DNA of 64,000 nucleotides from a bacterium (GCA_037137535.1 JBAXKC010000007.1:27037-91036), one strand, 5' to 3'. Positions 1,124 through 35,235 are shown, numbered from the stretch's first letter. Notes: a model not told the origin generated them from the letters alone. Made by a program: numbers and translations.

Positions 1124-2599
1124 ATGAAGAATATAACATCAAGACCACAAATCATTTTAAATACTAATAATTGGGCAAAAAGAAAAAATCTGAACGTATC
1201 AAGTTCAGAAACACTTACTGAAAAAAATTATGACTTGAATTTTAAAGGAAACCCTTTTGCCATTTTAGGTCAAATATTTCAACCTTCTATTAAAAAAACT
1301 GCTGCAAATATGAACGATGTTGCTTTTTTTAAAGAAATTATCGAAAAAATAAAGCTCACCACAAAAGGTAATGATACCTTAGAAAAACTTATTGAAGACA
1401 GTTTTCATAAAATTGATAAAACTAAAGTTACTGATCCCTTTGAATATATTTTTTCTGAATTACACAAAGGAATAGAAAAAGCAGAAAAACATCTTCAAAA
1501 GGCGAATGAAAGCAAAAACATAAATGATTACAGAAAAGCCGAACATTATTATAAAATATCGGCAAATTATATAGATAAATTAAATAAAAATATAAACAAT
1601 CATACAATTAATTCTAAGAATGGAGTATCAGTTTCAAATTTACGAGATAATTTTAAAATTTCAAACTTATGCAATAACTTTATTGAAAAAACAAATCAAA
1701 AACAGATTGAATGCAGAAATAATATCTTTAAAATAAATATTTCGCCGGAAGCTTTAGCTCAAACAAACGCACAAGAAACAGCAAAATATAAAGCTATTAA
1801 AAATGGCAATGGTTTTTATCGAATGACAGAACAATTAATTGACGGGCAGAGGATAAGCATGTATTCAAACCAAAGAATGACTTATACCAAAGAAGGTGTG
1901 CCTATTCCTTATAAAAATTTCAAAAAAGGACTCACTACTTTTGTTGTTGACTTAAGCAAAGATAATCAGTTAAAAAAGAACTTAGATTTTTTCAATAATA
2001 CCATTTTGGCTTTTGAAAAATTAAAAGGAAAAAATTTAGACGATTTAGAAAAAATCAAACATTTATGTTGCACGATGAAACAAATATTCCCTGAAAAAGG
2101 TTATATTCAAAATAACAAGGGGGAAACAGTTAATTTACTAACTTGGAGCAATAAACATGTGCCACATAGAGACATACTTCTTGGAGAATTTATTTCAGGA
2201 ACTAAAGACGGAATAAGACCAGGTGAAGCCGTTTGTCTTCAACAGTCAATGATTGCCAAAGTTTTTGGTGAAAATAACGGAATGAATGTTGATTTAATAA
2301 TCAATAAAGATCATGCATGGACAGAAATAAAAAGTAAAAATGGAGACAAATTTTTATTTGATCCAAGAGCTGGAATCATAGCAGATTTTAAAAATGCAAC
2401 TATATACTCTTATGATTCATATTTTGGAAGCATTGAAACATATGACAAAGACTTTATTATCAGAATGATTGAATACAAAAACAATAAGCCCTTAACTCCT
2501 GATTTCAAGCAAAAGGTTACTAATAAAGAATTACTTAGAATGTATTTAAGTTCTATTTATCAGAATGAAGTCGGAAAATCTATCTATGATAAAATATAG
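1124..2599 (+). CDS. Hypothetical protein with C-terminal EDR1/transglutaminase-like Cys-His-Asp domain
   Basis: ILLGEFI..GEAVCLQQSMIAKV, HAWTEI, FLFDP spacing typical of papain-fold transglutaminase-like triad; N-terminal LNFKG motif. Confidence 0.65.
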   Translation: MKNITSRPQIILNTNNWAKRKNLNVSSSETLTEKNYDLNFKGNPFAILGQIFQPSIKKTAANMNDVAFFKEIIEKIKLTTKGNDTLEKLIEDSFHKIDKTKVTDPFEYIFSELHKGIEKAEKHLQKANESKNINDYRKAEHYYKISANYIDKLNKNINNHTINSKNGVSVSNLRDNFKISNLCNNFIEKTNQKQIECRNNIFKINISPEALAQTNAQETAKYKAIKNGNGFYRMTEQLIDGQRISMYSNQRMTYTKEGVPIPYKNFKKGLTTFVVDLSKDNQLKKNLDFFNNTILAFEKLKGKNLDDLEKIKHLCCTMKQIFPEKGYIQNNKGETVNLLTWSNKHVPHRDILLGEFISGTKDGIRPGEAVCLQQSMIAKVFGENNGMNVDLIINKDHAWTEIKSKNGDKFLFDPRAGIIADFKNATIYSYDSYFGSIETYDKDFIIRMIEYKNNKPLTPDFKQKVTNKELLRMYLSSIYQNEVGKSIYDKI

Positions 2600-2603
2600 C
2601 AGA

Positions 2604-3536
2604 CTATTTTCCTATACCCGATTTGCCAAAAGTGCCCATAAGGCTTATTGCCGCAGGTCCCATTAAAACTATAAACATTGAAGGTAATATAAATAAGACC
2701 ATCGGAATTATCATCTTTACACTTGCTTTAGCCGCAAGAGCTTCAACACGTTGACGTCTTCTTGTTCTTACGGTATCGGCATAGACGCGTAAAGATTGAG
2801 CTATACTTGTTCCCAACTTATCGGTCTGAATTAATAAAGCTGTAAAACTTTTCAAATCAGGGACATTATTTCTATTTGCAAGATTTCTGAAAGCATCCTG
2901 CCTTTGAACACCTGCTAAAATATCTTTATTTACTTTTCCAAGCTCTTTTGCAAGAACAGGAGCCGTTCGGTTAAATTCCACCGATACTCTTGATAACGCA
3001 GCATCTAAACCTAATCCGGCTTCAACGCATACGGTTAATAAGTCTAACGCATCAGGAAGATTATAAGCTATATCGTCGGAACGTTTTTTAATTATTGATT
3101 TTAATTGAAAATCCGGAAATTTAAACATTCCATAAGTGCAAATAAATAGAGAAAATAACGAAAATAAAGGAGCTGACCTGTTCATAAGAGACATACAAAT
3201 TCCGATAATGACACCCATTAAAGCAAAAAATATTTTTTTCAATACGAATTTAGAGGCTTCTTCTTCTCCTGAAGCATAGCCTGCCTCTAAAAGAAGTTGT
3301 CTTGTCGATTTCATTTTATCTTTGCGTTTTAAAAAACTTGCTAAAAATGGCTCTAATAACTTATAGATTTCTTCTTTAAGACTAAATTTTTCTTCTTTGT
3401 TTTCTTCTTCTATATGATTAACTTGTGAAATCTTCGTTAATCTTGCTTGAAGAAGATCATTATGTTCATCATCAATAAAAATATATATTAAAATAGAAAT
3501 TGAAATTATTAAAAACATAAGAATAATGATATTCAT
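2604..3536 (-). CDS. tadC: Tad pilus inner-membrane platform protein TadC (T2SSF family)
   Basis: LPDALDLLTVCVEAGLGLDAAL motif; last gene of Tad operon. Confidence 0.93.
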   Translation of the reverse strand: MNIIILMFLIISISILIYIFIDDEHNDLLQARLTKISQVNHIEEENKEEKFSLKEEIYKLLEPFLASFLKRKDKMKSTRQLLLEAGYASGEEEASKFVLKKIFFALMGVIIGICMSLMNRSAPLFSLFSLFICTYGMFKFPDFQLKSIIKKRSDDIAYNLPDALDLLTVCVEAGLGLDAALSRVSVEFNRTAPVLAKELGKVNKDILAGVQRQDAFRNLANRNNVPDLKSFTALLIQTDKLGTSIAQSLRVYADTVRTRRRQRVEALAAKASVKMIIPMVLFILPSMFIVLMGPAAISLMGTFGKSGIGK

Positions 3537-3549
3537 TTAAATCTACTCC

Positions 3550-4539
3550 TTATATTTTAATATTTGTAATTTGTTTAATACATAGAAAACCGATAAAACC
3601 CATTGTTACCGCCATTGCTAAAGCCATCTGCCCCATAATATTTTCAAAAAGCGGCTTCATATAACTTGGATTCATTACCCAAATAAGCAAACCAATCGCA
3701 ACAGGAGCTAAAGCAAGCACAATTCCTGACATTTTAGCCTGCGCAGTCTGTGCATTAAGCTGACCGATAAGTTTAAATCGCTCTCTTATCGTATGCCCAA
3801 GATTATCTAATATTTCAGCTAAATTTCCGCCAATTTCCCTTTGAATAAGCACAGCTGTAATAAAAAACCTTAAATCAACGCTTTCAGGCATATAATTACT
3901 CATATTATCTAGAGCATCCCTTGTATCTCGCCCTAAAGAAATATCATCAACAACAACTTTAAAAACCTGTGATGTAGGTTCAGGCATTTCATTAATAACA
4001 AGAGCAAAAGAAGAAGACAAAGAATGACCGGCTCTTAAAGCACTTGAAATAAGACCGAGCGCATCGGGAAATTGTTGGCTGAATAATTCATGTCGTTTTT
4101 TTATACGCATTCTTATCATAAGAAAAGGACTATATGATAATATAATCCCTATTACAGTAAAAGCAACAGAATTTGCAGGTATAACCAAACCAAGGAAAAA
4201 GAAAAAGCTAAAAATACCTGCTGACATTAATAATAAAATATCAACTGTTATTTTAATATCAGCTGTTTTCAACATTCTCTTTAATTTTTCAGTCGATTTT
4301 AATCTATTTAAAATTGCGCCAATAAATAAAATTCTATATTCATCTGATGAAAAAAATGCTTTAAATTGTTGTTGCCTTAAACTTTCATTTTTTTTAGTTA
4401 AAAATACTTTATTTTTAATATTTCTAAGTCTTTTTGCCACTGATTCATCAATATTAACAACATTATTGTTAAATTGAGTAATAACAAAAAATATTGAAAA
4501 AATTAATATTAAAATAAATGCAAAGTTTAAAATATCCAT
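3550..4539 (-). CDS. tadB: Tad pilus inner-membrane platform protein TadB
   Basis: QFPDALGLISSALRAGHS, IQREIGGNLAEIL motifs. Confidence 0.93.
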   Translation of the reverse strand: MDILNFAFILILIFSIFFVITQFNNNVVNIDESVAKRLRNIKNKVFLTKKNESLRQQQFKAFFSSDEYRILFIGAILNRLKSTEKLKRMLKTADIKITVDILLLMSAGIFSFFFFLGLVIPANSVAFTVIGIILSYSPFLMIRMRIKKRHELFSQQFPDALGLISSALRAGHSLSSSFALVINEMPEPTSQVFKVVVDDISLGRDTRDALDNMSNYMPESVDLRFFITAVLIQREIGGNLAEILDNLGHTIRERFKLIGQLNAQTAQAKMSGIVLALAPVAIGLLIWVMNPSYMKPLFENIMGQMALAMAVTMGFIGFLCIKQITNIKI

Positions 4540-4550
4540 AAAAACTCAAA

Positions 4551-6077
4551 TTATCTTTTCAATCTATTTAATAGAGAATTTGATTCGTTACTACTCTTAA
4601 AAAGTTCTTCATTTTTAACTTTAGTGTTGTTATTTTGCGAATTATTATTAGAAGTAACTTCTTTTGTTGTTTTCAAATTTGGAGGATTTTTACAAAGATA
4701 AACAGGCGGTGTTTTAGCATCAAAAATAGCCAAAGATAAATTAATGCCTTTAGACTTACATCTATCAGCAAATAAAGGTCTCACACCCGTAGCAACATGT
4801 TGACCTATTATTTTTCCATTTTCATCTATGCCTGTCTGCTCCCATTTAAAAATATCCTGCATAGTAATTGTAGAGCCCTCTAATCCTGTCAATTCAGTTA
4901 TATGAGTAACTCTTCTTGTGCCATCACTAAGCCTGCTTGCCTGAACTATGATATGAACAGCCGAACTGACTTGAGTTCTGATAGTTCTTTCAGGCAATTC
5001 AACACCTGAGAACATAACCATTGTCTCTAGTCTGCTTAATGCATCTCTCGGAGTGTTTGCGTGAAGTGTAGTTAAAGAACCATCATGACCTGTATTCATC
5101 GCCTGTAGCATATCTAAAGTTTCAGCGCCACGACATTCCCCTATAACAATACGATCAGGTCTCATTCTTAAAGCATTAATAACTAAATCTCTAGCGGTTA
5201 TAGCTCCTGTTCCTTCAATGTTTGAAGGTCTTGTTTCAAGCCTTACAACATGTTCTTGCTGTAAATTCAATTCAGCAGAGTCTTCGATAGTTACAATTCT
5301 TTCATCTTCAGGAATTTGAGCTGATAAGCTGTTTAAAAGAGTTGTTTTTCCTGCACCTGTTCCACCCGATATAACAATATTTAATCGGCTTTTAACTGCG
5401 GCTTTTAAGGTATCTGCCATTGCAGTAGTCATTGATCCCCATTGTAGAAGACTTTCCAGCGTAGCGACATCAGACTTGAATCTTCTTATTGAAAGGGATG
5501 GTCCATCTATTGCTAATGGAGGAATAATAGCATTAACCCTTGACCCGTCAGGTAATCTTGCATCAACCATCGGAGACTTTTCATCAATTCTTCTTCCTAC
5601 TTTCGATACAATTCTTTCAATGATATTCATTAAATGAGCATTATCTTTAAAGGTTATTGAAGTTTTATGAATTTTACCATGTTTTTCAACATAAACCTGC
5701 TTTGCTCCATTAACAAGAATATCAGAGACTTCAGTATCAGCCAGTAAAATATCGAGAGGTCCATACCCCTTAACTTCATTCAAAATCTCTCTGATTATAA
5801 TTTCTTTTTCATTTTTATTTAACGGAGTTGTTCCAAAATCACTCGAAAGTTTTTTATCAATAAACTGGCGAATAAATTGTTTTTGTTCTTCTTCGGAATA
5901 AGTATCCCAAACAGGTGTAGAATTAACCTTTTCAATCAATAAAGTATGAATTTTTTCTTTGATATTCATAAATTCAACGGTTAAAGGCTCATTATACAAT
6001 GATAATTCATTATATGGTTTAACATCAGACGATTTAGACGGTGGAAGATTTTTACTTAACCTATCTCTTAATGACAT
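4551..6077 (-). CDS. cpaF: Tad pilus assembly ATPase CpaF/TadA
   Basis: Walker A GGTGAGKTT, LRMRPDRIVIGECRG, AMNTGHDGSLTTLHAN. Confidence 0.96.
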   Translation of the reverse strand: MSLRDRLSKNLPPSKSSDVKPYNELSLYNEPLTVEFMNIKEKIHTLLIEKVNSTPVWDTYSEEEQKQFIRQFIDKKLSSDFGTTPLNKNEKEIIIREILNEVKGYGPLDILLADTEVSDILVNGAKQVYVEKHGKIHKTSITFKDNAHLMNIIERIVSKVGRRIDEKSPMVDARLPDGSRVNAIIPPLAIDGPSLSIRRFKSDVATLESLLQWGSMTTAMADTLKAAVKSRLNIVISGGTGAGKTTLLNSLSAQIPEDERIVTIEDSAELNLQQEHVVRLETRPSNIEGTGAITARDLVINALRMRPDRIVIGECRGAETLDMLQAMNTGHDGSLTTLHANTPRDALSRLETMVMFSGVELPERTIRTQVSSAVHIIVQASRLSDGTRRVTHITELTGLEGSTITMQDIFKWEQTGIDENGKIIGQHVATGVRPLFADRCKSKGINLSLAIFDAKTPPVYLCKNPPNLKTTKEVTSNNNSQNNNTKVKNEELFKSSNESNSLLNRLKR

Positions 6078-6091
6078 TTGTTATGAACCTC

Positions 6092-7327
6092 CTACTTTCC
6101 GTTTTTTGTTAGTCTGCTTAAAAAAGGTGATATAGACTTCATACTAAATAAGCTTTTATTCTTTTTAGCCTTTCCTTGAAATTTATTGTCTCTTACTATA
6201 ACAGAATTACTCAACAATGCGGCTAATTCCATAAAACTTTGACTAATATTAGAATTAGGGTCAATTTTAGAAATAGGAACACCTCTGTTAATAGCAGACA
6301 TTACGGACAAGTAATTATTAGGAAACTTCCAATATACAGAATGCCCTAAAGCATCTTCAACATCTTCAACCGTAATTTCTTCATTAGGCATATAACGGTT
6401 GATAATCAACTTTACTTTATCTTCGTTATAATCAAGCCTGTTAAACAGGTCAATACATCTTTGAGAGTTTCGTATAGTAGGAAGATTTACCATTGAAACC
6501 AGAAGAATATTATCCGAGTTATCAAGTGAACACAGCGTTTTACTGTCAAAATTACTGCTTGTATCAATAATTATGTAGGAAAAAACTGATTTTAATATAC
6601 TGAGAACAGTATTAATCTGCTCAGAGGTAATTTCCTCAGCCTGCTCCAAATATGGAGGGTCTGCGAGTATATACAAATCTTTATCTTTATATTTTTCAAG
6701 AGTGCTTAGAAGAAATGACTCATCAACCCTGTTTAAATGAGTAACAACATAAGAAATATCAAAAGAAGGAGAAATATCCAAAAAGGTTGTCACATCGCCA
6801 AGTTGAAGGTTCAAATCAAGTAAGGCCACTTTTTTACCTGTAAGATCCGCAAGACTCACCGCAAGATTAGCGGCAATTGTAGTTTTTCCAATACCACCCT
6901 TGTTGCTGAAAACTGTTATTATTTTGCTCTGATGTCTTTCTTCATTATCAACATTAATAATGCTTTTAGCCTTATCAAGTGCATTTTTAAGCTCGTTTGT
7001 CTGAATTGGCTTTGATAAAAATTCTCTTGCCCCTGCTCTCATTGTCTTTAAAACAATATCTGTACTTACATCAGACGAAGTTACAAAGATAATAGTGTTT
7101 TTAGCTTGAATAGAAAGTTTTTCTATTACTTCAAGAGCATACTCTTCATTATCAGATATATCAATAATCGCAACAGACGGTTTGTCCTGAATAATAGCAT
7201 TATAGCCTGCGACTAAAGTATTATAATCTCCGATGACTTTAACATTTGGCATTTCATCTAAAGTGCTTTTTAGTATTGGGCTTTGATCCTCAAAGCTGTC
7301 AACCACTATCATTGAGATTAAATCCAT
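6092..7327 (-). CDS. cpaE: CpaE/TadZ pilus localisation protein (pseudo-receiver + MinD/ParA ATPase)
   Basis: N-terminal receiver-like domain, KGGIGKTT, LLDLNLQLGDV; ATG at 7327 directly follows the secretin stop codon. Confidence 0.9.
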   Translation of the reverse strand: MDLISMIVVDSFEDQSPILKSTLDEMPNVKVIGDYNTLVAGYNAIIQDKPSVAIIDISDNEEYALEVIEKLSIQAKNTIIFVTSSDVSTDIVLKTMRAGAREFLSKPIQTNELKNALDKAKSIINVDNEERHQSKIITVFSNKGGIGKTTIAANLAVSLADLTGKKVALLDLNLQLGDVTTFLDISPSFDISYVVTHLNRVDESFLLSTLEKYKDKDLYILADPPYLEQAEEITSEQINTVLSILKSVFSYIIIDTSSNFDSKTLCSLDNSDNILLVSMVNLPTIRNSQRCIDLFNRLDYNEDKVKLIINRYMPNEEITVEDVEDALGHSVYWKFPNNYLSVMSAINRGVPISKIDPNSNISQSFMELAALLSNSVIVRDNKFQGKAKKNKSLFSMKSISPFLSRLTKNGK

Positions 7328-7328
7328 A

Positions 7329-8690
7329 TTATAAGCCCTCTCCTGAAACATTGGAATCGATAATTCTAGGAGTTACAAATATTAAAAGCTCTGTTTCATC
7401 TTTTCTTATATCAGATCTCTTAAAGAAATTACCTATAATCGGTATATCGCCTAAAGTAGGGATTTGGTCTTTTGATGAATTATCTGTTCTTTTCAACAGT
7501 CCCGCAATAACAAGAGTCTGACCGTCCATTAACTGAACAGTAGTTTCAGCTTTTCTTGTTTTAAATCCGTAAATTTTTGAATTTTGATTTGTAACAGTTA
7601 CGGTAGAATCTATTTCACTTACCTCAGGAATTATATTTAATGAAATAAGTTTTGATTCAGGCTGTATAGTAGGGGTAAAAGTAACATTTACACCTGTATC
7701 TTTATATTCATAAGATACATTTCCGCCTTCACCGATACCGCTTGGAACAGGAACTTGATAACCTGCGTTAAAACTGGCTTTATTGCCATTTGTCGAAACA
7801 AGTTTAGGCTCTGCAAGTATTTTAACAAGACCTTTTTGCTCTGCCATACTTAAAGCAGTACTTACGCTTTGAGAATTAAATCCAAACCCTCTTAATCCCT
7901 TTGAAATATCCGGCTCAAAAGACATACCGTATTGATTCCCCGATATTGCCGTAGCAGCACTTGGAATAACACCAAATGTAAAATTATCAGCATATCTGCT
8001 TAATGCGAAACTTGAACTTATTATTTTTGTAAACGAACGAGCAGCTTCTGTAACTTTAACTTCAAGTACAATTTGAGGAGTTTTACATTCAGAAAGATCA
8101 ACAAATTTATAGCCGTATGCTTCAGTTATACTTTTAATTTTATCTCTTACAATAGAAGAAGAAACATTTCCTGCAAGTATAACATTTTCAGAATTAGTAA
8201 ATTTTAAATCCACTTTTTCATTCGGATATACTGATCTGACAGCTTTTAATAAAATAGTAGGATCATTTTTAATATTCAAATCAAAGAAAACAGGTTCACC
8301 TGTTTCTCCCCATATAATTAAACTTGTTAAGCCTGCTGTTTTACCGTTTAAAAGCAATTCATTAGGCGAAAGCATTATTATATCGGCAAGTGAAGGATTT
8401 GTTAAAGATATTCTTTTTACAGGCTCATTAAATCTTATAAGCTGAGATTTCCCCACAAAAGCAGTCATTTCAGAAATACTACCTTTTAAATCAGCGTTAA
8501 CTTTTTCCGTAGGAGTAAAAAAGGTATCAGAAATTTTTCTGGAGGCTTTATCATCAATAGACAAAGGAGAAAGATTCATTTCTCTAAGCTGTGGAGCAGC
8601 ATCAGCATTAACCGACTGCGAACAAGAGAATAAAAGCGCAATTGATAACAAGCCAAATATTATATTTTTTTTCTGATAATTATAGTTCAA
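7329..8690 (-). CDS. cpaC: Tad pilus secretin CpaC/RcpA
   Basis: Signal peptide, pilus N-terminal domain (GKSQLIRF..G.TSLIIW), secretin core LAEPKL..GNKASF.AG, IPTLGDIPIIGNFF..ETELLIFVTP. Confidence 0.92.
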   Translation of the reverse strand: MNYNYQKKNIIFGLLSIALLFSCSQSVNADAAPQLREMNLSPLSIDDKASRKISDTFFTPTEKVNADLKGSISEMTAFVGKSQLIRFNEPVKRISLTNPSLADIIMLSPNELLLNGKTAGLTSLIIWGETGEPVFFDLNIKNDPTILLKAVRSVYPNEKVDLKFTNSENVILAGNVSSSIVRDKIKSITEAYGYKFVDLSECKTPQIVLEVKVTEAARSFTKIISSSFALSRYADNFTFGVIPSAATAISGNQYGMSFEPDISKGLRGFGFNSQSVSTALSMAEQKGLVKILAEPKLVSTNGNKASFNAGYQVPVPSGIGEGGNVSYEYKDTGVNVTFTPTIQPESKLISLNIIPEVSEIDSTVTVTNQNSKIYGFKTRKAETTVQLMDGQTLVIAGLLKRTDNSSKDQIPTLGDIPIIGNFFKRSDIRKDETELLIFVTPRIIDSNVSGEGL

Positions 8691-8701
8691 CTCATTTACC
8701 T

Positions 8702-9658
8702 TTAATAATCGCTGTTAAAATTAACTTCTGACTTAACATTTGCCTGAATAAGCTCTACTGATTTTGTATGCTGCAACTTTGGAGCAGCTGGTAGCGGCAA
8801 GCCTGACGAAGAAATAGCCGGAAGTGTCGGAACTCCGGAAATGGAAGGGACTTCAGGAAGTTTATAACCAGGGATTATTGATCCATAATTATGACCTGAA
8901 CTTGAAGCTGAATGCCTTTTCTTATAAGACTTGTTTCCGATAATTTTTTTATCTGTAAAATTTCTAGCCACAACTTGAAGCTTTCCACTCATCATTGCAT
9001 CAACTATCCTTGCCGAAGAGCCTGCCGGAATCTGAAAGGTTATTGCTGTTGCCTTTATTACAGATTGAGCTGTGCCATCAGGCACACCTTCTAACGAGAT
9101 TATCTTTACGTTTTGCAAAATAAGCTCAGGCTGTTCTGTCGCTGTTTTTGCCATTGAAATAATATCAACATAACTTCCTTTTGTAATATAAGAAGCTAAG
9201 CCTTGAATATAGGACACAGGAATGGATATAGCCCTCATTCCTTCAGGAAGATCAAGCCCGGCAAAACTATTTTCCATTACATCGCTATTTTTTATAAAAT
9301 CTCCTGCCTTTATGGCTTTTGCACTGATTTTACCAACAAGAGAATATAAATTATTTGATACATCGGGTGGCATTAATTTTGCGTTAATTTGCTTTGCTTC
9401 CATCATTTCTGTGGTTAACACAACGCCTGAAGGGATATTTTGTCTTGAAACAACAGCAAGATTAGAATTAACAACATTAACACCGCTTTGCAAATTTTGT
9501 GATAATCTGCCAAGTTCTGTTTTTTGAGATTGCAGCTCTTTACTCAAATCCTGAATTACCGCATCTTTTTTAGTAAAAGATGTGAATATACCAAAAGCGG
9601 AGATAATGCCTGCTGTAACCGCTATCATTATTTTTTTTCTATTTGACTTTGAACGCAT
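8702..9658 (-). CDS. cpaB: Flp pilus assembly protein CpaB/RcpC
   Basis: N-terminal TM, SAF-like domain, LPEGMRAISIPV..G.YVDI..ILQNVKII. Confidence 0.9.
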   Translation of the reverse strand: MRSKSNRKKIMIAVTAGIISAFGIFTSFTKKDAVIQDLSKELQSQKTELGRLSQNLQSGVNVVNSNLAVVSRQNIPSGVVLTTEMMEAKQINAKLMPPDVSNNLYSLVGKISAKAIKAGDFIKNSDVMENSFAGLDLPEGMRAISIPVSYIQGLASYITKGSYVDIISMAKTATEQPELILQNVKIISLEGVPDGTAQSVIKATAITFQIPAGSSARIVDAMMSGKLQVVARNFTDKKIIGNKSYKKRHSASSSGHNYGSIIPGYKLPEVPSISGVPTLPAISSSGLPLPAAPKLQHTKSVELIQANVKSEVNFNSDY

Positions 9659-9835
9659 ATCCTATCCCGATCAAATACTTTATTTTAGATATCGGCTATC
9701 GCAAAGATTAACTTTAACATTTTACGACAGTCCACCCTTTAGATTACCAGTTATAATGATTTTGAATATCATTCAAACAAACTATATCAAGTATAATCCG
9801 ATTTTTTTGAAATATAAAGTATTTTATACGAAAGT

Positions 9836-10172
9836 TCATTTAGGCTTATTATTCTTAATTTTATGCCTATGTTTATGAAATTTTTTAGAGTGTTTCTTTT
9901 TATGGTGTTTTTTCTTTTTAGTATGTTTTTTAGGTTGTTTTGGCTTTAAAATACATGTTTTACAAGAATGAGCATTAAATAATTGTTCTGCTTCATCTCT
10001 TGTTGTTACGACACAATTAGAACAATACGAAGCCGTGACGACCATCAATTTTATGATAAATTTTACTATCCAAATTTAAAGCAACATCTTCTGCAAAACT
10101 AAAATTGCAAAGACATCAGTGCAAGATAATAATCGCAAATAACTTATTAAGCTTTAATAGAGTAATTTTCAA
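9836..10172 (-). pseudogene. Disrupted gene for small exported Cys-rich protein with His/Lys-rich tail
   Basis: TTG at 10172 after GAGGG; reads MKITLLKLNKLFAIIILH*CLCNFSFAEDVALNLDSKIYHKIDGRH, then 1-nt shift near 10034 into ASYCSNC...EAEQLFNAHSCKTC. Confidence 0.55.
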
Positions 10173-12327
10173 GTTTTATACCCTCTTTCACTCCTAAGAC
10201 ACAATATATTTTTACAGCATTATCTTTTCCTTTAACTTTACATTCATCAAGATATTGAGTGTTTATATACTCCTTGACTTCGTTGTAAGTCGTTTCACTG
10301 ATAATAATATTCGTTTTATATTCCTTATTAAGCCCCTCAAGACGGGAAGCGAGGTTGACATTATCACCTACAACAGTATAATCAAGCAATCTTGGCGAAC
10401 CCATATGACCAACAATCATATCACCGGTATTTATGCCTATACCGATATCTAAAACATGCTTACCTTCTTCAGCCCATTTTTTATTTAAGAATTTTAATGA
10501 CTCCATCATGGAAATAGCCGTTAAAACAGACCTTAGAGCATGGTCTTCCATCGGTAAGGGATCACCATAAAAGGCCATAATTGCATCGCCAATATATTTA
10601 TCTAACGTTCCATTATGCTTTAATATCACTTCGACCATTTCAGTCATATATTCATTCAACTGTGAAATAAGTTCATGAGGCGGTATTTTCTCTGAAAGAG
10701 TAGTAAAACTTCTAATATCAGAGAATAAAACCGTCATATACTTTCTTTGACCTTCTCTGGATACACTTTTAGGGTCTTTTAATAATTTATCAAGAACCTG
10801 AGGAGAAACAAACTTTCCAAACAAGTTTTCTATTTGCTGTTTATCCTTTTTCTCTATATGAATTTTATATAAGTATGTCCCAATGGAAGAAACGGTCATT
10901 AATATTAGCGGATAGGTCATATTCACCCATATTCTGATCTGAGGATGGGCAAAAAGAATAAGAGCCAATATTATAAAAAAGAATACAACAAGGAAAAAAC
11001 CTGCAAGACTAAGCAAATTAGAACGAGCTTTAATAATAAAAATAACAATTGCCGCACAAAACAATAATGAAATCATAAAATTTGTTATAAAATCGGCTTT
11101 TTTTATAAAATTCCTTGAAGAATTACTATTTTTAAGAGTGTCATGAAGCAAATTATCAATACTTGTAGCAATTATTTCCGTCCCGGGGTAAACCATGCCC
11201 ATTGGAGTAGGATGAAAATCAGTACCCGGTGCTGTTTGACCTATTACAATTATTTTATCCTTAAAAAAGTCAGAGGTTATTCTATCACTTGGATTAATTT
11301 TATTAATTTTACCTTTTTCAAAAGCTTCGGAAATCAAAACTTTAGAAATAGAAATATTTTTATAAGCAGAAGCTTTTCCATGCCAGTTAATAAGAAGTTT
11401 CCCCTCTTCATCAATAGGAATTATTCTGTTTTTTGATTCAATTCTGTCTTGATATAACTTATAGGAAGCGTTTTCATCTTTGTCTGACAAGGCAATAACC
11501 GTTGCCAAAGGAAGAGATGGGATATACTGAACACCTTGACTCTTCGCCAATCTGTATAGTGGCTCATGCACTCTGGCAACAAGGCTGTCACCAGACTTCA
11601 GATTAATAACACCCAAAGAATGCGAACTTGCTAAAAGCTCGGGGCTTATAGCACTATTTCCGTAAAAAGTAATATTATTAAGTAAATTTTGAATATTTTT
11701 ATCAGTAGAAGGTAACTCCTGTATCGATTTGTCATCAATATTTAATGTTAATGCTTTTTTTAATGGAATTGATGAAATATTTAACTGCTTATAAACATAA
11801 CTATCTAAATTATTATTAGAAAATTTTCTTTGCTTAGTTAAATCGTTAACTTCCTTGCTGATTGACTCTCTTGGATAAGATAAGGCAACTCCGAGAATTA
11901 CGTTTTTATGTTTTTTTAAAACATCCGCCATATATTTATCAGAATAAACACTCTTAATATCATTGCCTTCAGAGCCTTCAAACTTTATATCAAAAACTAT
12001 TGCCTTAGGCTTACCCTTATTAATAAAAGTTATTACATCTCCCCAGGTTTTTCTCGGCCATGGCCACCTTCCAAGAGCAAGTTTAGGATATTGCATCAAT
12101 TTATCATTTGTAGACTGATCATCCGTCAGTAGAATTATATTATTATCGGCTTTTCTGAATTTAGAACTAAAAGGCCCTCCATCAACAGAGATTTGAGCTC
12201 GCCAATCATACATAATGCTTTCAATATTATTTAAAAGGTCTTTAATACCTGCAAACCAGCTTATTCCGATTATCAGAACACAAGCAAAAACCACCAACAT
12301 ATTGCGGAAGAAATAATTATCACGCAT
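10147..12327 (-). CDS. CHASE2-domain class III adenylate/guanylate cyclase
   Basis: GRWPWPR CHASE2 motif, three TM helices, TVLFSDIRSFT, DKYIGDAIMA, YTVVGDNVNLASRLE. Confidence 0.95.
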   Translation of the reverse strand: MRDNYFFRNMLVVFACVLIIGISWFAGIKDLLNNIESIMYDWRAQISVDGGPFSSKFRKADNNIILLTDDQSTNDKLMQYPKLALGRWPWPRKTWGDVITFINKGKPKAIVFDIKFEGSEGNDIKSVYSDKYMADVLKKHKNVILGVALSYPRESISKEVNDLTKQRKFSNNNLDSYVYKQLNISSIPLKKALTLNIDDKSIQELPSTDKNIQNLLNNITFYGNSAISPELLASSHSLGVINLKSGDSLVARVHEPLYRLAKSQGVQYIPSLPLATVIALSDKDENASYKLYQDRIESKNRIIPIDEEGKLLINWHGKASAYKNISISKVLISEAFEKGKINKINPSDRITSDFFKDKIIVIGQTAPGTDFHPTPMGMVYPGTEIIATSIDNLLHDTLKNSNSSRNFIKKADFITNFMISLLFCAAIVIFIIKARSNLLSLAGFFLVVFFFIILALILFAHPQIRIWVNMTYPLILMTVSSIGTYLYKIHIEKKDKQQIENLFGKFVSPQVLDKLLKDPKSVSREGQRKYMTVLFSDIRSFTTLSEKIPPHELISQLNEYMTEMVEVILKHNGTLDKYIGDAIMAFYGDPLPMEDHALRSVLTAISMMESLKFLNKKWAEEGKHVLDIGIGINTGDMIVGHMGSPRLLDYTVVGDNVNLASRLEGLNKEYKTNIIISETTYNEVKEYINTQYLDECKVKGKDNAVKIYCVLGVKEGIKLENYSIKA

Positions 12328-15435: not shown

Positions 15436-15437
15436 AA

Positions 15438-16121
15438 ATGAAAATTTCTGCAATTATACCCGCAGGTGGCTCTGGAAACAGGTACAGCAAAGAGAAGAAT
15501 AAGCTTTTAGAACTTTTATCGGGGAAAGAAGTTTTAATAACAACTATTGAAGCTATTTTAACCTCTGATTATATTGACAATATTATAATTCCCTCCTATG
15601 AAGGAATTATTCCCTTTTTAAACAAAGCCTTACAGACTTTTCCTCATAAAGACAAAATTCAAATCATTAATGGAGGAGACACAAGGCAAGCATCTGTTTA
15701 TAATGCATTGGAGTTTTTAAATAAAACAACTAAACCTGATTATATTGTGATACATGATGGAGCAAGACCTTTAATTACAAACGATATTATCAATTCAGTA
15801 ATCAAAAAAGCCATTGAAACTGATGCGGCAATCGTTGCAGTCCCTGTAAAAGATACGATTAAAAGAGCTAATAGCGAAAATTTAGTTATAGAAACGCCTA
15901 ACAGAGAAGAATTATGGCAAATTCAAACCCCACAGGTCTTTAATTTTGATAAATTAATTAAGGCTCATGAAAAATACAAACAGGAAAATTTTACAGATGA
16001 TGCAGCACTTATGGAAAAAGAAGGCTATAACGTGTTTCTTGTAAAAGGCTCTTATTCAAATATAAAAATAACTACCCCCGAAGATATTATTATTGCTGAG
16101 GCGTTATTGGCAATTCAGTAA
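15438..16121 (+). CDS. ispD: 2-C-methyl-D-erythritol 4-phosphate cytidylyltransferase
   Basis: PAGGSGNR, IHDGARP, QTPQVF, NIKITTPED. Confidence 0.95.
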   Translation: MKISAIIPAGGSGNRYSKEKNKLLELLSGKEVLITTIEAILTSDYIDNIIIPSYEGIIPFLNKALQTFPHKDKIQIINGGDTRQASVYNALEFLNKTTKPDYIVIHDGARPLITNDIINSVIKKAIETDAAIVAVPVKDTIKRANSENLVIETPNREELWQIQTPQVFNFDKLIKAHEKYKQENFTDDAALMEKEGYNVFLVKGSYSNIKITTPEDIIIAEALLAIQ

Positions 16122-27287: not shown

Positions 27288-27830
27288 TTATCTTCTTCCT
27301 TGTTGATTATTTTGCCTGAAGTCTCTCATGTTTTGGTGTTGTTCTTGTCTAAACGCTTGTCTTCCTTGCTGATTGTTTTGTCTGAAATCTCTCATATTTT
27401 GGTGTTGATCTTGTCTAAACTCTTGTCTTCCCTGCTGATTATTTTGTCTGAAATCTTGCATGTTTTGGTGTTGATCTTGTCTGAACTCTTGTCTTCCCTG
27501 TTGATTATTTTGTCTAAAATCTTGCATGTTTTGGTGTTGTTCTTGTCTGAACTCTTGCCTTCCCTGTTGATTATTTTGTCTGAAATCTTGCATGTTTTGG
27601 TGTTGTTCTTGTCTGAATTGTTGTTTTTCCAGTTGATTATTCTGTTTATATTCTTCTCGTTTTTGATTCATCTCTTCTCGATGTTGCATGTATTTTTGTT
27701 GTCTTTCTTCGGGGGATAAATTGGGTCTGTCTTGATTATAAGACGGAGAATCAGAGCTTACCTGACTAAATGCAGAATTTCCAACTAGTAATAATGAACA
27801 GACAAAAGCCGCCGCTAATAACTTTTTCAT
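27288..27830 (-). CDS. Exported Gln/Arg/Asn-rich tandem-repeat protein
   Basis: RBS AAGGGA, signal peptide MKKLLAAAFVCSLLLVGNSAFS, five 22-aa repeats. Confidence 0.8.
   Translation of the reverse strand: MKKLLAAAFVCSLLLVGNSAFSQVSSDSPSYNQDRPNLSPEERQQKYMQHREEMNQKREEYKQNNQLEKQQFRQEQHQNMQDFRQNNQQGRQEFRQEQHQNMQDFRQNNQQGRQEFRQDQHQNMQDFRQNNQQGRQEFRQDQHQNMRDFRQNNQQGRQAFRQEQHQNMRDFRQNNQQGRR
27294..27623 (-). repeat. 66-bp tandem repeat, 5 copies (QEFRQEQHQNMQDFRQNNQQGR)
   Basis: TTTTGGTGTTG core recurs every 66 nt. Confidence 0.92.
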
Positions 27831-27962
27831 GTAAATCCCTTTCATGCTAATCTTTTGCAAATAATTTCAAACAAACACCGAAGCAGATAATAACTTTATA
27901 AGGTTGTAAATAATTTTACGACTTACAACCCTATAAAAGTTTATACCCATTATAAAAAATTT

Positions 27963-28466
27963 TTAATCTTTATTGAAATTATGATGTTCTCCTTTTTCAT
28001 CATGATACTTTTTCATCTCCGCCTTACGCTCTTCTCTGAATTTAGCAAATTGAACTTTTTGATCAGGGGTCAATATTGCTTCAAATTGCTTCATATTTTC
28101 TTCCCTGACTTGTTGCACCTGTTTTCTCATTGCTCTTACTTTTTCTTGCTGTTGAGCTATATCTTGAGAAGGAGCCTTTTGTTCTCTCATTTGTTTTAAT
28201 TTTTGATATTCTGCTTTTAAATTATCAATTAGAGGCTTGATTTTACCTTTAGAAGCTTCTCTCATCGCTTTTGCTTTTTGGGCTTGATCAGGTGTTAAAT
28301 TCAAATAATCTTTAATTTTTGGTCTTTGACATTCTTTATTAAACGTAGATTGAGCTTGAGTATTATCGCTAATTAATAATTTATCAACATTTTGAGCAAA
28401 AGCTCCACTTGAAAATGCAAATAAAGACAAAGCAATTAAAGTTGTTGAAATATAATGTTTTTTCAT
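27963..28466 (-). CDS. Spy/CpxP family periplasmic chaperone
   Basis: Signal peptide; two LTxxQ motifs (LNLTPDQ, ILTPDQ). Confidence 0.9.
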   Translation of the reverse strand: MKKHYISTTLIALSLFAFSSGAFAQNVDKLLISDNTQAQSTFNKECQRPKIKDYLNLTPDQAQKAKAMREASKGKIKPLIDNLKAEYQKLKQMREQKAPSQDIAQQQEKVRAMRKQVQQVREENMKQFEAILTPDQKVQFAKFREERKAEMKKYHDEKGEHHNFNKD

Positions 28467-28487
28467 GAGTTTGAACCCTTTCGTTAA

Positions 28488-28997
28488 TTATAGAAATTCT
28501 TTTAACTCTTCTTTAAGCAATCTTCTGGCTTTAAAGAGTCTTGATTTTATTGTGCCTGCAGGGCAATTTAATTTTTTAGCTATAGCATCATGTGTTAATT
28601 CTTCTATGTCATGAAGAATGACAACTTCCTTGAATTTGGGAGGTAACAAATTGATTGCATTAATTATAGTTTGATGTCTTTCATTCAAAAGTGCTTTCTG
28701 TAAAGGGATGGGCTTATTATCCTTTATCTGATTAAACATTTCTTCATCAGAGCAAGCAAAAGCTTTCTTACTTTTAGTAAAATCCTTACATGTGTTTATG
28801 GTTACAGTTTTTATCCATCCGAGCAAAGAAGTGCTATTTTCTACTTTATGAAAATTTTTCCATGTTTTTATATAGACTGTTTGCTCAATGTCATCAACTT
28901 CATCATCATCAATCGAGTTTTTAAAAAAACCTTTTATAGTAGACCGAACTCGACCGTTATATTCATTGATTACATTTTTTATCGGGGTATCTTTCAT
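28488..28997 (-). CDS. ECF-type RNA polymerase sigma factor
   Basis: DDIEQTVYIKTW, WIKTVTINTCKD, IAKKLNCPAGTIKSRLFKAR. Confidence 0.92.
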   Translation of the reverse strand: MKDTPIKNVINEYNGRVRSTIKGFFKNSIDDDEVDDIEQTVYIKTWKNFHKVENSTSLLGWIKTVTINTCKDFTKSKKAFACSDEEMFNQIKDNKPIPLQKALLNERHQTIINAINLLPPKFKEVVILHDIEELTHDAIAKKLNCPAGTIKSRLFKARRLLKEELKEFL

Positions 28998-29004
28998 ATA
29001 AGCC

Positions 29005-29370
29005 TTATTCTATCTCCAATAATCCATATTGATCAGTTGGTAAGCCCATTGCTTCAACAACAGATGTATCATTAACAGATAACTCCGAGGACTTCGTATG
29101 TTCAATTGCAATTTTATTTACAGAAAAATTATCAAATGCGAAAAAACATAGAAAAATAAGAATTAATGATGCAACAGCCTGTAATTGAACAGAAGGAATT
29201 TTTTTTGATTTTGATTTATTAAGATATGGTTTTACTTCTTTAACAAGAGAAGCTATTTTTTGATCTTCCTCATATTCTTTCCTGCACTCTTCGCAGTCTT
29301 TGATATGAGAGAACAAAACTTCTTCACTCTGAAATAAGTATAACGATTCATATCTATTACATTTTCCCAT
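29005..29370 (-). CDS. Probable zinc-binding anti-sigma factor with TM helix
   Basis: HIKDCEEC (HxxxCxxC) ZAS motif, single TM, adjacent to ECF sigma. Confidence 0.75.
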   Translation of the reverse strand: MGKCNRYESLYLFQSEEVLFSHIKDCEECRKEYEEDQKIASLVKEVKPYLNKSKSKKIPSVQLQAVASLILIFLCFFAFDNFSVNKIAIEHTKSSELSVNDTSVVEAMGLPTDQYGLLEIE

Positions 29371-29623: not shown

Positions 29624-30769
29624 ATGAGTTTATTTAAATCTCTTTTAATCACGATAGCTATTTTTATTTTCATTGGATTATTTTGCGTTATAGGTGTTTT
29701 TTTTGATCAAGAGAAAAAATCAGAGAAAACTCTTGCATTAGTTAAAGATTTATACAATAAAGGAAGCTATGAAGAGGTAATAGCTAAAGTTAATGAAACT
29801 CTTCCATTTGCTCATAGAGAAGAATTATTATTTACTAAGTTCGAATCATTAATGGAGTTAGGTAAATTTTATGAAGCCGAAACTCTTTCAAAAGAATTAT
29901 TAAAGCTTAATGCAAAGAACGATAAATGTTATTATTTATTAGGTCTTTTATATTACAATACAGGCGATTTTACAAAATCATCGGAATCATTTAAAAAAGC
30001 CATTGAACTACAACCGAAAAATATTGATTATAAATTAAATCTGGCTAGAATTCTTGCTCAAAATGGTAACTATGATGACGCAATAAAAGTTTATGCACAA
30101 ATAATGAAAGAAGATCAAAGATATGAAGTGGCATGGGCTGAAATGGCTAATACCTATAATACGATAGGGAATAAAAAAGAAGTTTTAAGATTAAGAAAAG
30201 ATGCCGTAAAAAGGTTTCCTAATAATTCGTATGATCACTATATGCTTGGTGTAATTTATGATGAACTGAAAATGAAAAAACAGGCGATTATTTCATTTAA
30301 AAAGTCTATTGATTTGCAACCTGATGCTGATACAGATGCAAAAGACAGATTGGAAAAATTAACAGGAAAGAGTTATAGCGTTACTTTTGGATCACAAGAA
30401 CGAATTCCATATCATGGAATGGGTAATCTTATGCTTATTAATACAAAGGTTAATAATGTAAAGGGGACATTCTTAGTTGACACAGGTGCTATGACTACCG
30501 TACTTTATTCAAGATTTCTTAAAAATAATAATATTAAATTGATTACAAATTCTTTTGGTGTAATAGAAATGGCTAACGGCAAAAAAAGTTTTGCTCCTTC
30601 TACCTATATTGATGTACAGATGGGAAGTAAAAATCTAACAGATATAAGAGCTTATATTTTACCTGATACTAAGAATATGAATATTGATGGAATAATCGGA
30701 ATGAATGTATTGAATAATTTTAGTTTTCAAATAGATTCAGGGAAAAATTCTATATTAATTAATAAATAA
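29624..30769 (+). CDS. TPR-repeat protein with C-terminal retropepsin-like aspartyl protease
   Basis: N-terminal TM, multiple TPRs, FLVDTGA and DGIIGMNVL motifs. Confidence 0.88.
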   Translation: MSLFKSLLITIAIFIFIGLFCVIGVFFDQEKKSEKTLALVKDLYNKGSYEEVIAKVNETLPFAHREELLFTKFESLMELGKFYEAETLSKELLKLNAKNDKCYYLLGLLYYNTGDFTKSSESFKKAIELQPKNIDYKLNLARILAQNGNYDDAIKVYAQIMKEDQRYEVAWAEMANTYNTIGNKKEVLRLRKDAVKRFPNNSYDHYMLGVIYDELKMKKQAIISFKKSIDLQPDADTDAKDRLEKLTGKSYSVTFGSQERIPYHGMGNLMLINTKVNNVKGTFLVDTGAMTTVLYSRFLKNNNIKLITNSFGVIEMANGKKSFAPSTYIDVQMGSKNLTDIRAYILPDTKNMNIDGIIGMNVLNNFSFQIDSGKNSILINK

Positions 30770-30787
30770 TCCTATAACTAAAAAAGT

Positions 30788-31562: not shown

Positions 31563-31567
31563 TGTTG

Positions 31568-33120: not shown

Positions 33121-33143
33121 ACTGTTATATTTATAATTTTTTA

Positions 33144-33800
33144 TTAAAACAAATTAAATATAGATGCAACGCTGACTAATGCAACATCAGAAATTAAATT
33201 TGCAGCAGTCCAAAAAACATGTGAAGCACCTGGAATAATGCATAGAACTAAAAATAAAAGAAGATATCCATTATTTCCAATTTTTTCATAGATTTTATTA
33301 ACGGCAGGAATCAAATATTTAGCAATATGACTACCCTCCAGCGGTGGTAAAGGAATTAAAGTAAATAATGCTAATACGGCATTTGCCTGACTACCTGTCT
33401 GAAAACAAAATAACAGGTTCTTTTTTACATGTACAGGAATAAAAGATAAATTATTTTTCAAACAAACTATATATAATAAAGAAAAGACAAAAACCATAAC
33501 CAAACTCGCAAGTGGTCCTGCTAAGCTGACAAGGGCTTTGCTGTATTTATGCTTATATGTTTTGTTCTCCATATCAAAAGAATCCCAAAACATTCCAAAT
33601 AAAACCAGTAGAATAAGCGACATATAATTCAAATAATAAACAGGATTAAAAGAAAAATAATCTTTTCTTTTAATGGCTAAATCAGTTTGTTTATAGGAAA
33701 CAGCAGCATGAGCTAATTGATGAATATAAGCCGAAATTATGACTATAACAATCCAAGTAATATAAAGTTGAAAATCTGTAAATAAATATTGTATAAACAT
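33144..33800 (-). CDS. Site-2 protease (M50) family membrane protein, degenerate active site
   Basis: IHQLAH, VSLAGP, LFTLIPLPPLEGS. Confidence 0.8.
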   Translation of the reverse strand: MFIQYLFTDFQLYITWIVIVIISAYIHQLAHAAVSYKQTDLAIKRKDYFSFNPVYYLNYMSLILLVLFGMFWDSFDMENKTYKHKYSKALVSLAGPLASLVMVFVFSLLYIVCLKNNLSFIPVHVKKNLLFCFQTGSQANAVLALFTLIPLPPLEGSHIAKYLIPAVNKIYEKIGNNGYLLLFLVLCIIPGASHVFWTAANLISDVALVSVASIFNLF

Positions 33801-34008
33801 TTTTAAATTCCTATCCTTTAAACCTATTATAATCTCTAAACAATAGATTTATACCAACTATTTTAACGAAAATTTAATAAGTTTCAAAATAATGTAAAAT
33901 ATTTAAAAAAACATGTATAAAAATTTCAAAAGGACTATCAATATTTTTTATTTTTGGTTTTTAAGCACTTATCAAGATTTTTATTAGTGAAAGTTTAGAG
34001 TGAATTAT

Positions 34009-35235
34009 ATGATTTATTCGATTAAGCCACAAACAAACTTGCAATATCACAACAAGAAAGTCGAAAATAAAAACATCAATAACTTCTCTAATAATGCTTC
34101 GTCAAAAAGCATCAATTTTACAGGAAATAATCCTGATCTTGCAACAAAAATTGCGAAATCCATACCTGATGGAGTTTTTACATTTAAACCAATTCAAGGA
34201 TTGTTTAAACTTGCACAAAAAGATTTAGCCTTATTTGATGCGGTTTTAACATTCGCATTGGTGGCGTCAATAAGACCATTAACGATTATGGCAATGCCTG
34301 GCGCAAGCAAAGAAGATAAACAATATGCCGCTACAAAAGCTATGGCTGGTGGAGCAATTGGCTTAGGTTTAACAGCCTTACTTTTTACTCCCGTTACAAA
34401 AGCTGTTAAAGGTGTATCAAAAGAACTGTTTAAAGGACTTGCTAACTCCGAGAAGAAAGAAAAAGCCTTTGAATATTTAATGAATTATGGTGCTAAGTTT
34501 ATTATTGCACCGCTTCAAGCCTTTTTACTGGTGGAATCAATTCATCCTATTATGGATTTAGTATTCCCTAAGAAAAACAAGAAAACAGAAGAAAAAAAAT
34601 CTACTGAAAAGGCCTTTACCTCAAACCAAACTGTTAAATCAAATAATTCCGCAAGTTTACTTAACATTCTTGAAGAAGCTAATAAAAATAAATCCTTAAA
34701 AACTGAAAACAGAACTGCTTTATTCTCACAAAAACCGACTGCTAAAGTTACAAGCTTTGGTGGACTTCAATCTTTCTTTGATAATTTAATTAAAGAAAAC
34801 CCTGCTACTAAAAAAACTAATCTTGATACAATTAAAAAATTTGCTCCCGCTATATCAGGGTTATGGTTAGAAGGTTGTTATTCTACGGCTTCTATCTCTT
34901 CCGACAAAATACCTAAAGAAAGAAAAGCTCCATTAGTAATCAATCTTTTATTTACTGGAGTAACTTCTGCGATCGGAAGTATTGCATTAGCTCCGTTTAT
35001 TGAAAAATGTGAAGTTGCACTTGTAAAAAGATTTAATGAAATTAATGGAATTAAAGCTCTTGAACAACAAGAACGAACTGTATTAGGCGAAGGCTTAAAA
35101 GCAATGCCACATATTGCAATAGCAGCAATACTTTTACATTATATTTGTCCTGTAATAGCTACACCTATTGCAGATAAAGTGAATAAATTCCTTATTAAGC
35201 AAAATATCCTTAAAGCTCCTGACACTAAAAAATAA
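34009..35235 (+). CDS. Hypothetical membrane protein with two tandem hydrophobic units
   Basis: Long ORF; Asn-rich leader ending SINFTG, second linker ending VTSFGG, several hydrophobic helices. Confidence 0.75.
   Translation: MIYSIKPQTNLQYHNKKVENKNINNFSNNASSKSINFTGNNPDLATKIAKSIPDGVFTFKPIQGLFKLAQKDLALFDAVLTFALVASIRPLTIMAMPGASKEDKQYAATKAMAGGAIGLGLTALLFTPVTKAVKGVSKELFKGLANSEKKEKAFEYLMNYGAKFIIAPLQAFLLVESIHPIMDLVFPKKNKKTEEKKSTEKAFTSNQTVKSNNSASLLNILEEANKNKSLKTENRTALFSQKPTAKVTSFGGLQSFFDNLIKENPATKKTNLDTIKKFAPAISGLWLEGCYSTASISSDKIPKERKAPLVINLLFTGVTSAIGSIALAPFIEKCEVALVKRFNEINGIKALEQQERTVLGEGLKAMPHIAIAAILLHYICPVIATPIADKVNKFLIKQNILKAPDTKK

Follow-up and report, generated by a model that had tools for sequence, protein, structure and literature searches.

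A 64,000-nt stretch of bacterial DNA (JBAXKC010000007.1:27037-91036; "the window" denotes the whole of it) encodes two unrelated proteins, the transglutaminase-like ORF1124 and the multi-pass membrane protein ORF34009 (open reading frames, ORFs, named by their first coordinate), which share a short linear motif in their N-terminal tails. The motif reads hydrophobic-(Ser/Asn)-Phe, usually with x-Gly next and often then a proline. Comparison with relatives shows that it is conserved at the protein level in both families, at sites where structure models predict disorder. We tentatively favor a position-independent docking motif that sits on cytoplasmic tails and is retained on the protein, and place the probability of this reading at roughly 0.4. 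An earlier interpretation made from the window alone (the sequence-only reading) had proposed an export or processing leader on three effector-like orphans. Its observation that lineage-restricted, unrelated proteins without a Sec signal share a short N-terminal motif stands, whereas its F[KTG]G core, its inclusion of ORF16235 and its effector repertoire with an export route do not.

Results

The window (~31% G+C) yielded 49 ORFs (19,069 aa), which were scanned against Pfam and are in majority housekeeping genes. Its relatives are metagenome-assembled genomes of Melainabacteria/Gastranaerophilales. The non-photosynthetic cyanobacterial relatives of the gut are uncultured, and much of their proteome is without annotation. 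Eight comparison loci (L001–L008) were taken from a single scan of species-representative genomes and selected around relatives of ORF34009; protein relatives are numbered P0005–P0030. Together, the window and the loci (~186 kb) gave 184 ORFs in 109 BLAST families. Pfam status is known for 78 families (112 of the 184 ORFs were scanned); ORFs of L007 count toward the ORF and family totals and lie outside both the Pfam scan and the comparison of families with and without Pfam matches.

Translations and pattern searches place LNFKG in ORF1124 and INFTG plus an internal TSFGG in ORF34009, as the sequence-only reading had noted (Table 1). The pattern [LIV]NF[KT]GN occurs twice among the 49 window proteins, solely at the ORF1124 and ORF34009 sites. 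The broader [LIV][NS]F[KTGS][GA] has six matches over the six frames of the window, and its in-gene matches are those same two alone. F[KTG]G, the signal proposed earlier, is unspecific, with 15 matches in window proteins and 12 of these beyond the first 60 residues. By our own estimate, the likeness of LNFKG and INFTG across two 60-residue tails is not significant by itself, and the verdict therefore rests on the relatives.

A word-based search with ORF34009 returned ten proteins at E ≤ 0.001 (its own cluster and nine relatives), and the relatives are mostly of ~250 residues with the match confined to the C-terminal half. The genome scan found the family in eight Melainabacteria loci. In seven of the eight, the N-half and the C-half are adjacent, often overlapping, separate genes; the L007 homologue is fragmented. 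BLAST detects no match between the two halves of the window protein that would suggest paralogy, and a single-linkage family of 18 joins both halves only via the fused window protein.

All eight N-halves with an intact N-terminus (window plus seven loci) carry the motif, in the forms INFTG, IGFSA, LSFSG, ISFSG, VSFGM (twice), LSFGG and VSFGG. Its start ranges from residue 27 to residue 76, and the tails are otherwise divergent in sequence and length. Among C-halves, the motif accompanies the leader: it is present in five of five forms with a leader and in none of the six leaderless forms (L001–L005 and P0005). In L006, L008, P0009 with its close relatives, and P0006, the leader has ISFKG, ISFKA or VSFGS. 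Judged from sequence, this co-presence marks the motif as a portable module. Because leader-bearing separate C-halves have the motif at this place, the TSFGG of the window can be read as the C-half leader motif kept in the fused gene. The AlphaFold2 (AF2) model of ORF34009 is helical and of modest confidence (predicted local distance difference test, pLDDT, 59.5), with predicted disorder at residues 1–42 and 226–253; each motif copy abuts a helix. Structure-atlas look-alikes of this protein are Melainabacteria hypotheticals only, and PDB sequence searches returned nothing.

Two further observations concern this family. L007 (CP091731.1) is a complete long-read chromosome in which the ORF34009 homologue (9700–11340) and many neighbors are broken into short ORFs, with 36 ORFs of at least 70 aa in 21 kb, as if through indel errors or pseudogenisation. 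In the L006 and L008 N-halves, an RxxxR (RKTLR, RRTLR) lies upstream of N-[VL]-S-F-G-G at residues ~19–35 and looks PilZ-like by eye. NISFKG and NVSFGG likewise fit the [D/N]xSxxG half of the PilZ cyclic di-GMP motif pair (RxxxR ... [D/N]xSxxG) by eye, and the window copies have Asn instead of Ser. With no PilZ match in Pfam and the region predicted to be disordered, this is probably coincidence.

ORF1124 belongs to a rare family. A word-based search recovered its own sequence only, and HMMER, run exhaustively over 1.84 billion representatives, gave 16 proteins at E ≤ 0.001 when ORF1124 is counted. Cys371, His397 and Asp413 are invariant in a 13-member alignment, a putative catalytic triad of the transglutaminase/papain-like peptidase type. 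Five of the 13 members match the transglutaminase-like peptidase family PF14381 (best 1.2e-11), which a 2023 classification assigns to the transglutaminase-like papain-fold enzymes (PMC10318531). ORF1124 itself scores far below threshold against Transglut_core3 (E 0.078; 13.3 bits versus 26). Its best Foldseek matches are menin, PNGase and TgpA at E 0.058–0.34, none at or below 0.001, and its structure-atlas look-alikes are transglutaminase/EDR1-like leads only. In the AF2 model (pLDDT 73), residues 1–102 fall below 50 and are followed by a helical bundle and an alpha/beta domain. The cargo assignments made earlier are thus borne out: a transglutaminase-like ORF1124 (invariant triad, PF14381 in relatives), a calpain-like ORF16235, marginally, and five hydropathy segments in ORF34009.

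Twelve ORF1124 homologues were found via the C-terminal domain and are a fair test set for a leader motif. Six of them have [LIV][NS]F within residues 2–80 (shuffle mean 1.28; 3 of 5000 shuffles reach six), against one of the 12 after residue 80. Their leaders give no BLAST alignment, except among P0024, P0025 and P0026. The window copy and its continuation, LNFKG-NPFAILG, resemble ISFSG-NPLAALG of the L003 N-half. Common ancestry of the ORF1124 and ORF34009 families was considered and rejected (hhalign probability 0.1; no link by hidden Markov model (HMM) or phmmer).

Further carriers were found in the comparison loci (Table 1). The pattern [LIV][NS]F[KTGS] occurs in the first 80 residues of 7 of the 15 families without a Pfam match and 3 of the 63 with one (Fisher 2e-4). 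When the 15 families' own N-termini were shuffled, the mean was 1.47 and 0 of 2000 shuffles reached seven. Requiring the final Gly leaves 5 of 15 and 0 of 63. The sequence-only reading had named as its refutation a motif no more frequent in orphan N-termini than in composition-matched shuffles; the motif is commoner there than in either the shuffles or the Pfam families. A scan of the 15 no-Pfam families ranks it third, with motif fragments in five of the top eight places. At the level of sequence, sharing of the motif across families is moderately supported.

The further carriers have no detectable kinship to the ORF1124 or ORF34009 families by HMM or phmmer; the single carrier-to-carrier exception is an 11-bit match of L006_15192 to L002_9986. 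Carriers lie within ~5 kb of the ORF34009-family gene pair in four loci: L003 and L004 have one directly upstream, L002 has one ~2 kb upstream, and in L008 two overlapping carriers lie ~4 kb away. The residue after x varies (G, A, M, S, R, T, Q, H). It is small (Gly/Ala/Ser) in 17 of the 28 loose-core matches listed, and 5 of the 28 end in GG.

Two side observations touch these carriers. The overlapping L008 pair (15139–16838, minus strand) consists of unrelated motif orphans (ISFKQ at residue 16; ISFGG at residue 61) that share 7 nt in an apparent operon, and L006 has the smaller of the two only, beside a GTPase gene. A second leader feature, N[LI]Y in residues 2–25 (INLYNPLP, NNLYKLP, VLNIYNN, DKNLYGRH), was picked out post hoc and occurs in 6 of 25 carriers (shuffle mean 0.97; 1 of 5000), a count inflated by ortholog pairs. 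It is present in P0018 and in ORF16235 (window 16235–16310) as well.

Codon usage speaks to the level at which the motif is conserved. Its Ser is encoded by AGC, AGT, TCT, TCA and TCG, so both the AGY and TCN boxes are used, and selection therefore acts on the amino acid, i.e. on the peptide. The motif Gly uses all four codons, and the hydrophobic position uses ATT, ATA, ATC, GTT, GTA, TTG and TTA. Three DNA-level explanations were rejected, namely a slippery site, a conserved DNA box, and an internal Shine-Dalgarno sequence serving a start further downstream: no in-frame start follows the motif, and the codons vary.

The leaders of ORF1124 and ORF34009, both predicted disordered in the AF2 models, resemble no established leader class that we compared. 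Neither protein has a hydrophobic segment in its first ~70 residues. A Sec signal has a hydrophobic h-region of ~7–15 residues inside the first ~30. Kyte-Doolittle hydropathy over 19-residue windows stays below 1.6 throughout ORF1124 and ahead of residue 73 in ORF34009; windows this coarse could miss a short h-region, and the hydropathy scan agrees with the earlier statement that both lack a Sec signal. A genuine Sec signal was seen by eye elsewhere in the window, in ORF27288. The Tat consensus is S/T-R-R-x-F-L-K followed by an h-region; neither leader has an RR, and no hydrophobic stretch follows the motif. Prepilin and Flp leaders have a cleavage Gly and then a ~20-residue hydrophobic helix (Glu at +5, or Flp G/XXXXEY). 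Here the Gly is followed by NPFAILGQIFQP and NNPDLATKIAKS, with no Glu5/Tyr6 and no long hydrophobic stretch. Double-glycine (C39) leaders have GG, GA or GS at −2/−1 behind conserved hydrophobic positions, and a C39-ABC transporter is linked to them; the window copies end in KG and TG, and no Peptidase_C39 was found among the 49 window proteins. A surface-level full-text search found no description of the motif in the literature.

Base composition gives no support for recent acquisition. The G+C content of ORF1124, ORF16235 and ORF34009, overall and at third codon positions, lies within 1.5 standard deviations of 47 window genes. Recent horizontal insertion is not supported by this native-like composition, and the description of the three as stand-alone insertions is doubtful, the ORF34009 family being conserved across Melainabacteria besides. 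Around the ORF34009 family, Pfam annotation of 63 ORFs from seven of the eight loci revealed genes for regulation, transport and metabolism, and no secretion, chaperone or protease genes.

ORF16235 had been proposed as a third carrier with a weaker version of the motif. Both of its homologues (P0029 and P0030, 51–53% identity) have RINNNLF in place of SVNFF, and a position weight matrix (PWM) test gave p = 0.117, 0.741 and 0.333. A motif in ORF16235 is not supported by these sequences, and we do not count it as a carrier; it shares just the post-hoc N[LI]Y feature. Peptidase_C2 (PF00648) matches residues 528–752 as a marginal pass (24.3 bits versus a cut-off of 23.8; E 1.9e-5). PDB sequences gave no match at E ≤ 1, and NCBIfam and PADLOC gave coiled-coil noise only. 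A 321-bp tandem duplication (1.9 copies, 86% matches) spans window 16625–17225 within the coiled coil; the stalk joining the FHA/calpain part to the membrane anchor has doubled recently.

Table 1 Motif carriers and motif copies in the window and comparison loci
Feature	Location	Residues	Strand	Description
ORF1124	1124–2599		+	Soluble, 491 aa; disordered leader 1–102, helical bundle 105–226, Cys-His-Asp domain ~230–450
LNFKG, ORF1124 motif copy	1235–1249	38–42	+	In the disordered leader; NPFAILG comes next
ORF16235	16235–18562		+	Doubtful carrier; N-terminal tail, transmembrane anchor 56–74, duplicated coiled coil, FHA 440–504, calpain-like C-terminal domain
VNFFS in ORF16235	16253–16267	7–11	+	Doubtful motif copy
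ORF34009	34009–35235		+	408-aa multi-pass membrane protein; fusion of two genes separate elsewhere
INFTG, ORF34009 motif copy	34111–34125	35–39	+	Closes the disordered tail, directly ahead of helix 42–51
TSFGG, ORF34009 internal copy	34750–34764	248–252	+	Closes the disordered linker, directly ahead of helix 251–263
Further carrier	L003 7424–9013	52		VSFKG
Further carrier	L004 3323–3739	12		VSFSG
Further carrier	L008 15690–16838	61		ISFGG
Looser carrier	L006 15192–15770		−	ISFKQ
Looser carrier	L008 15139–15696		−	ISFKQ
Looser carrier	L002 6556–7929			ISFKH

Discussion

We propose that the hydrophobic-(Ser/Asn)-Phe motif, which closes a disordered Asn/Lys/Ser-rich tail on its C-terminal side and directly precedes the first helix, would tag a Melainabacteria-specific set of proteins comprising the two-gene (here fused) ORF34009 family, the ORF1124 family and several small orphans. 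The motif may dock to a common putative partner on the inner membrane's cytoplasmic side, probably contributing a short strand to that partner, whose role could be assembly, localisation or turnover. The cytoplasmic location, the docking function and the shared partner are what we infer from this arrangement. Docking is preferred over an N-terminal export signal because selection acts on the amino acids, because the motif sits at the end of the disordered tail with a helix next and is modular across orthologues, and because an internal copy is kept in the fused protein and the carriers are mostly integral membrane proteins of a conserved lineage-specific family. Its retention inside ORF34009 is also why the motif appears to be position-independent.

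A number of points weigh against this proposal. The partner is putative, and tail topology was judged from charge by eye. The pattern derived from the sequence-only reading, [LIVT][NS]F[KTG]G, matches none of the 12 ORF1124 homologues; for this reason the conserved core, as far as the sequences tell, is hydrophobic-Ser/Asn-Phe with x-Gly often next, rather than F[KTG]G. MAFFT places VAFFK (~66–70) of ORF1124, not LNFKG, in the column of the homologues' ISFSR/VSFCG, which leaves the orthology of the ORF1124 copy to the homologues' motif uncertain. A PWM trained on the ORF34009 family picks up 4 of the 12 ORF1124 homologues at p ≤ 0.061. The pattern fixed before relatives were collected finds two new families among 107 (shuffle mean 0.26; 55 of 2000 reach two). 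Allowing Ser at position 4 finds three (shuffle mean 0.29; 10 of 2000), and this and the other wider patterns, such as that without the Gly, were chosen post hoc with the data already in view. The four-residue core matches 11 of the 109 families and permuted cores match 3 to 10, two of the permuted 4-mers overlapping true motif instances. An unbiased scan of the 109 families does not rank the motif near the top (hsF.G, 5 versus 1.27). Some of the higher-ranked patterns resemble, by eye, P-loop and Rossmann-type signatures. For the scan of the 15 no-Pfam families, something as surprising as hsF.G appears in 29 of 200 shuffles, so the motif is not family-wise significant there. Finally, the loci were picked around ORF34009 relatives, and adjacent carriers may lack independence.

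Much of this feeds the rival that survives best, which we regard as doubtful although possible: that the motif is real only in the ORF34009 family, and that elsewhere Asn/Ser/Lys/Phe/Ile-rich tails at 31% G+C and post-hoc fitting produce it by coincidence. Four of six residues common to two 60-residue tails are not rare by our estimate. The permuted 4-mers, the unbiased scans, the empty result of the earlier pattern, the poor transfer of the PWM and the VAFFK column all fit this explanation. Composition-preserving shuffles nonetheless fall short, both for the no-Pfam families and for the ORF1124 homologues; the Gly-ended form is absent from the 63 Pfam families; and the homologues' matches concentrate in the first 80 residues. 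The motif also occupies the same position in unrelated proteins, where disorder ends and a helix follows.

A processing site is the most attractive alternative to docking, because a cut at TSFGG would recreate the two-protein state of other genomes, though we consider it unlikely. Cleavage by a dedicated protease, at the motif or directly behind it, would strip off the Asn/Lys-rich leader and divide the fused ORF34009 in two. Leader peptidases provide the analogy: the enzyme could be papain-like, for which the ORF1124 family itself or the calpain-like protein ORF16235 would be examples. In other genomes, the mature part of the second gene begins at the position of the internal TSFGG; a small residue comes next in most of the loose-core matches listed, and some orthologues do without the leader. 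Leader-removing proteases include C39 and Prp. The lasso-peptide leader peptidase McjB (Transglut_core3; PMC10318531) is another, a cysteine protease of transglutaminase-like type that recognises an N-terminal leader and takes it off. ORF1124 weakly matches Transglut_core3, at a score far short of the threshold; no lasso-peptide cluster is present, and its family matches PF14381 instead. Against processing, various residues follow x, the seven loci scanned have no protease in synteny with the ORF34009 family, the ORF1124 family is rare while the membrane family is widespread, and the N-termini are those predicted from sequence.

We also entertain, as an improbable extension, a non-Sec targeting peptide used throughout Melainabacteria and resembling an organelle transit peptide. 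A disordered Asn/Lys/Ser-rich leader ending in hydrophobic-S/N-F-x-G would route lineage-specific membrane proteins and enzymes to one dedicated machine that would export them, assemble membrane domains or remove leaders. One component of it could be the ORF34009 family, which is present in all the loci, bears the motif throughout and has other carriers around it.

More improbable still seems an export signal that delivers a repertoire of effectors into non-Sec secretion (e.g. Tad, flagellar type III or type IV): the leaders lack a Sec signal, are disordered, polar and 30–100 residues long like those of type III and contractile-injection cargo, the cargo includes an enzyme with a protease-like fold, and ORF1124 adjoins a Tad locus, but ORF1124 is convergent with tadC and outside the Tad operon, codon usage is native, the carriers are mostly integral membrane proteins from a family that all eight related loci contain, no secretion gene lies near carriers in the seven loci scanned, and the motif is kept at an internal site where an N-terminal signal role is impossible. 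No evidence points to an effector repertoire or an export route, and the ORF34009 family is one of conserved multi-pass membrane proteins. A cleavable Sec-like export leader is, we infer, not what the motif is.

Docking by a short peptide has parallels in known systems. TonB boxes are docking motifs in TonB-dependent transporters and colicin translocation domains, and they work either in the periplasm, once the protein has passed through Sec, or on toxins entering the cell. The motif described here is similarly a strand-like element of 5–7 residues in a disordered polar N-terminus, is attached to unrelated functional domains and is proposed to act by docking on a partner. It differs in consensus, and its carriers have no Sec signal and a tail that is probably cytoplasmic. 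Type III substrates carry FxxxPhi gate-recognition or chaperone-binding motifs in their N-terminal regions, likewise Phe-centered, ~30–40 residues in, in a disordered region and free of a Sec signal. That spacing is not satisfied here (F-K-G-N-P, F-T-G-N-N), the internal copy looks functional, and Pfam finds no type III genes in the window or scanned loci. Double-glycine leaders, cut by ABC transporters with a C39 papain-like peptidase, are also N-terminal non-Sec leaders on unrelated cargo; the short end motif here is often Gly-Gly (VSFGG, LSFGG, ISFGG, TSFGG), and the C39 enzyme is papain-like. However, K, S, T and G all occur at −2 here, C39 leaders have nothing that corresponds to the conserved Phe and Ser, the −4/−7/−12 hydrophobic periodicity is missing, and the window has no Peptidase_C39 or linked ABC transporter. 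Carriers here are large membrane proteins and enzymes, unlike the small peptides of C39 systems.

A motif that links several unannotated families offers a way to group Melainabacteria orphans, a peptide bait for a common partner and a fixed pattern for whole-proteome tests. Should that partner prove to be a machine for sorting, export or processing, it would represent a system not yet described in the phylum. If the motif fails on whole proteomes, what is left is a conserved element in the tail of a single family of membrane proteins.

Other features of the window

The Tad/Flp pilus locus (2604–9658, minus strand) is the only secretion-type system in the window. It is compact, with TadC, TadB, TadA/CpaF, a TadZ-like ATPase with a receiver domain, the RcpA secretin and RcpC/CpaB. 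Pfam agrees, with two T2SSF genes, a T2SSE ATPase, the TadZ-like ATPase with its receiver domain, a secretin and RcpC/CpaB. Beside the locus we recognise neither a Flp pilin nor a prepilin peptidase, and the sole small ORF upstream (9836–10048, minus strand) encodes 70 Lys/His-rich residues.

A membrane-anchored protein of unusual architecture is encoded at 29624–30769 (plus strand), in which TPR repeats are joined to an aspartic protease domain of the retropepsin-like kind (clan AA, TIGR02281-type); it is a conceivable candidate for a reader or cutter of the motif. A cluster at 27288–29370 (minus strand) resembles envelope stress genes. It holds an extracytoplasmic function (ECF) sigma factor (28488–28997), a small Cys-rich putative anti-sigma factor (29005–29370), an LTXXQ/Spy-like protein (27963–28466) and a Gln-rich repeat protein with a clear Sec signal (27288–27860). 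Signaling genes are abundant in the window, including a CHASE2-adenylate/guanylate cyclase (10147–12327) and a 1549-aa sensor kinase (42771–47420, plus strand) composed of MASE3, four GAF stretches, PAS and HATPase.

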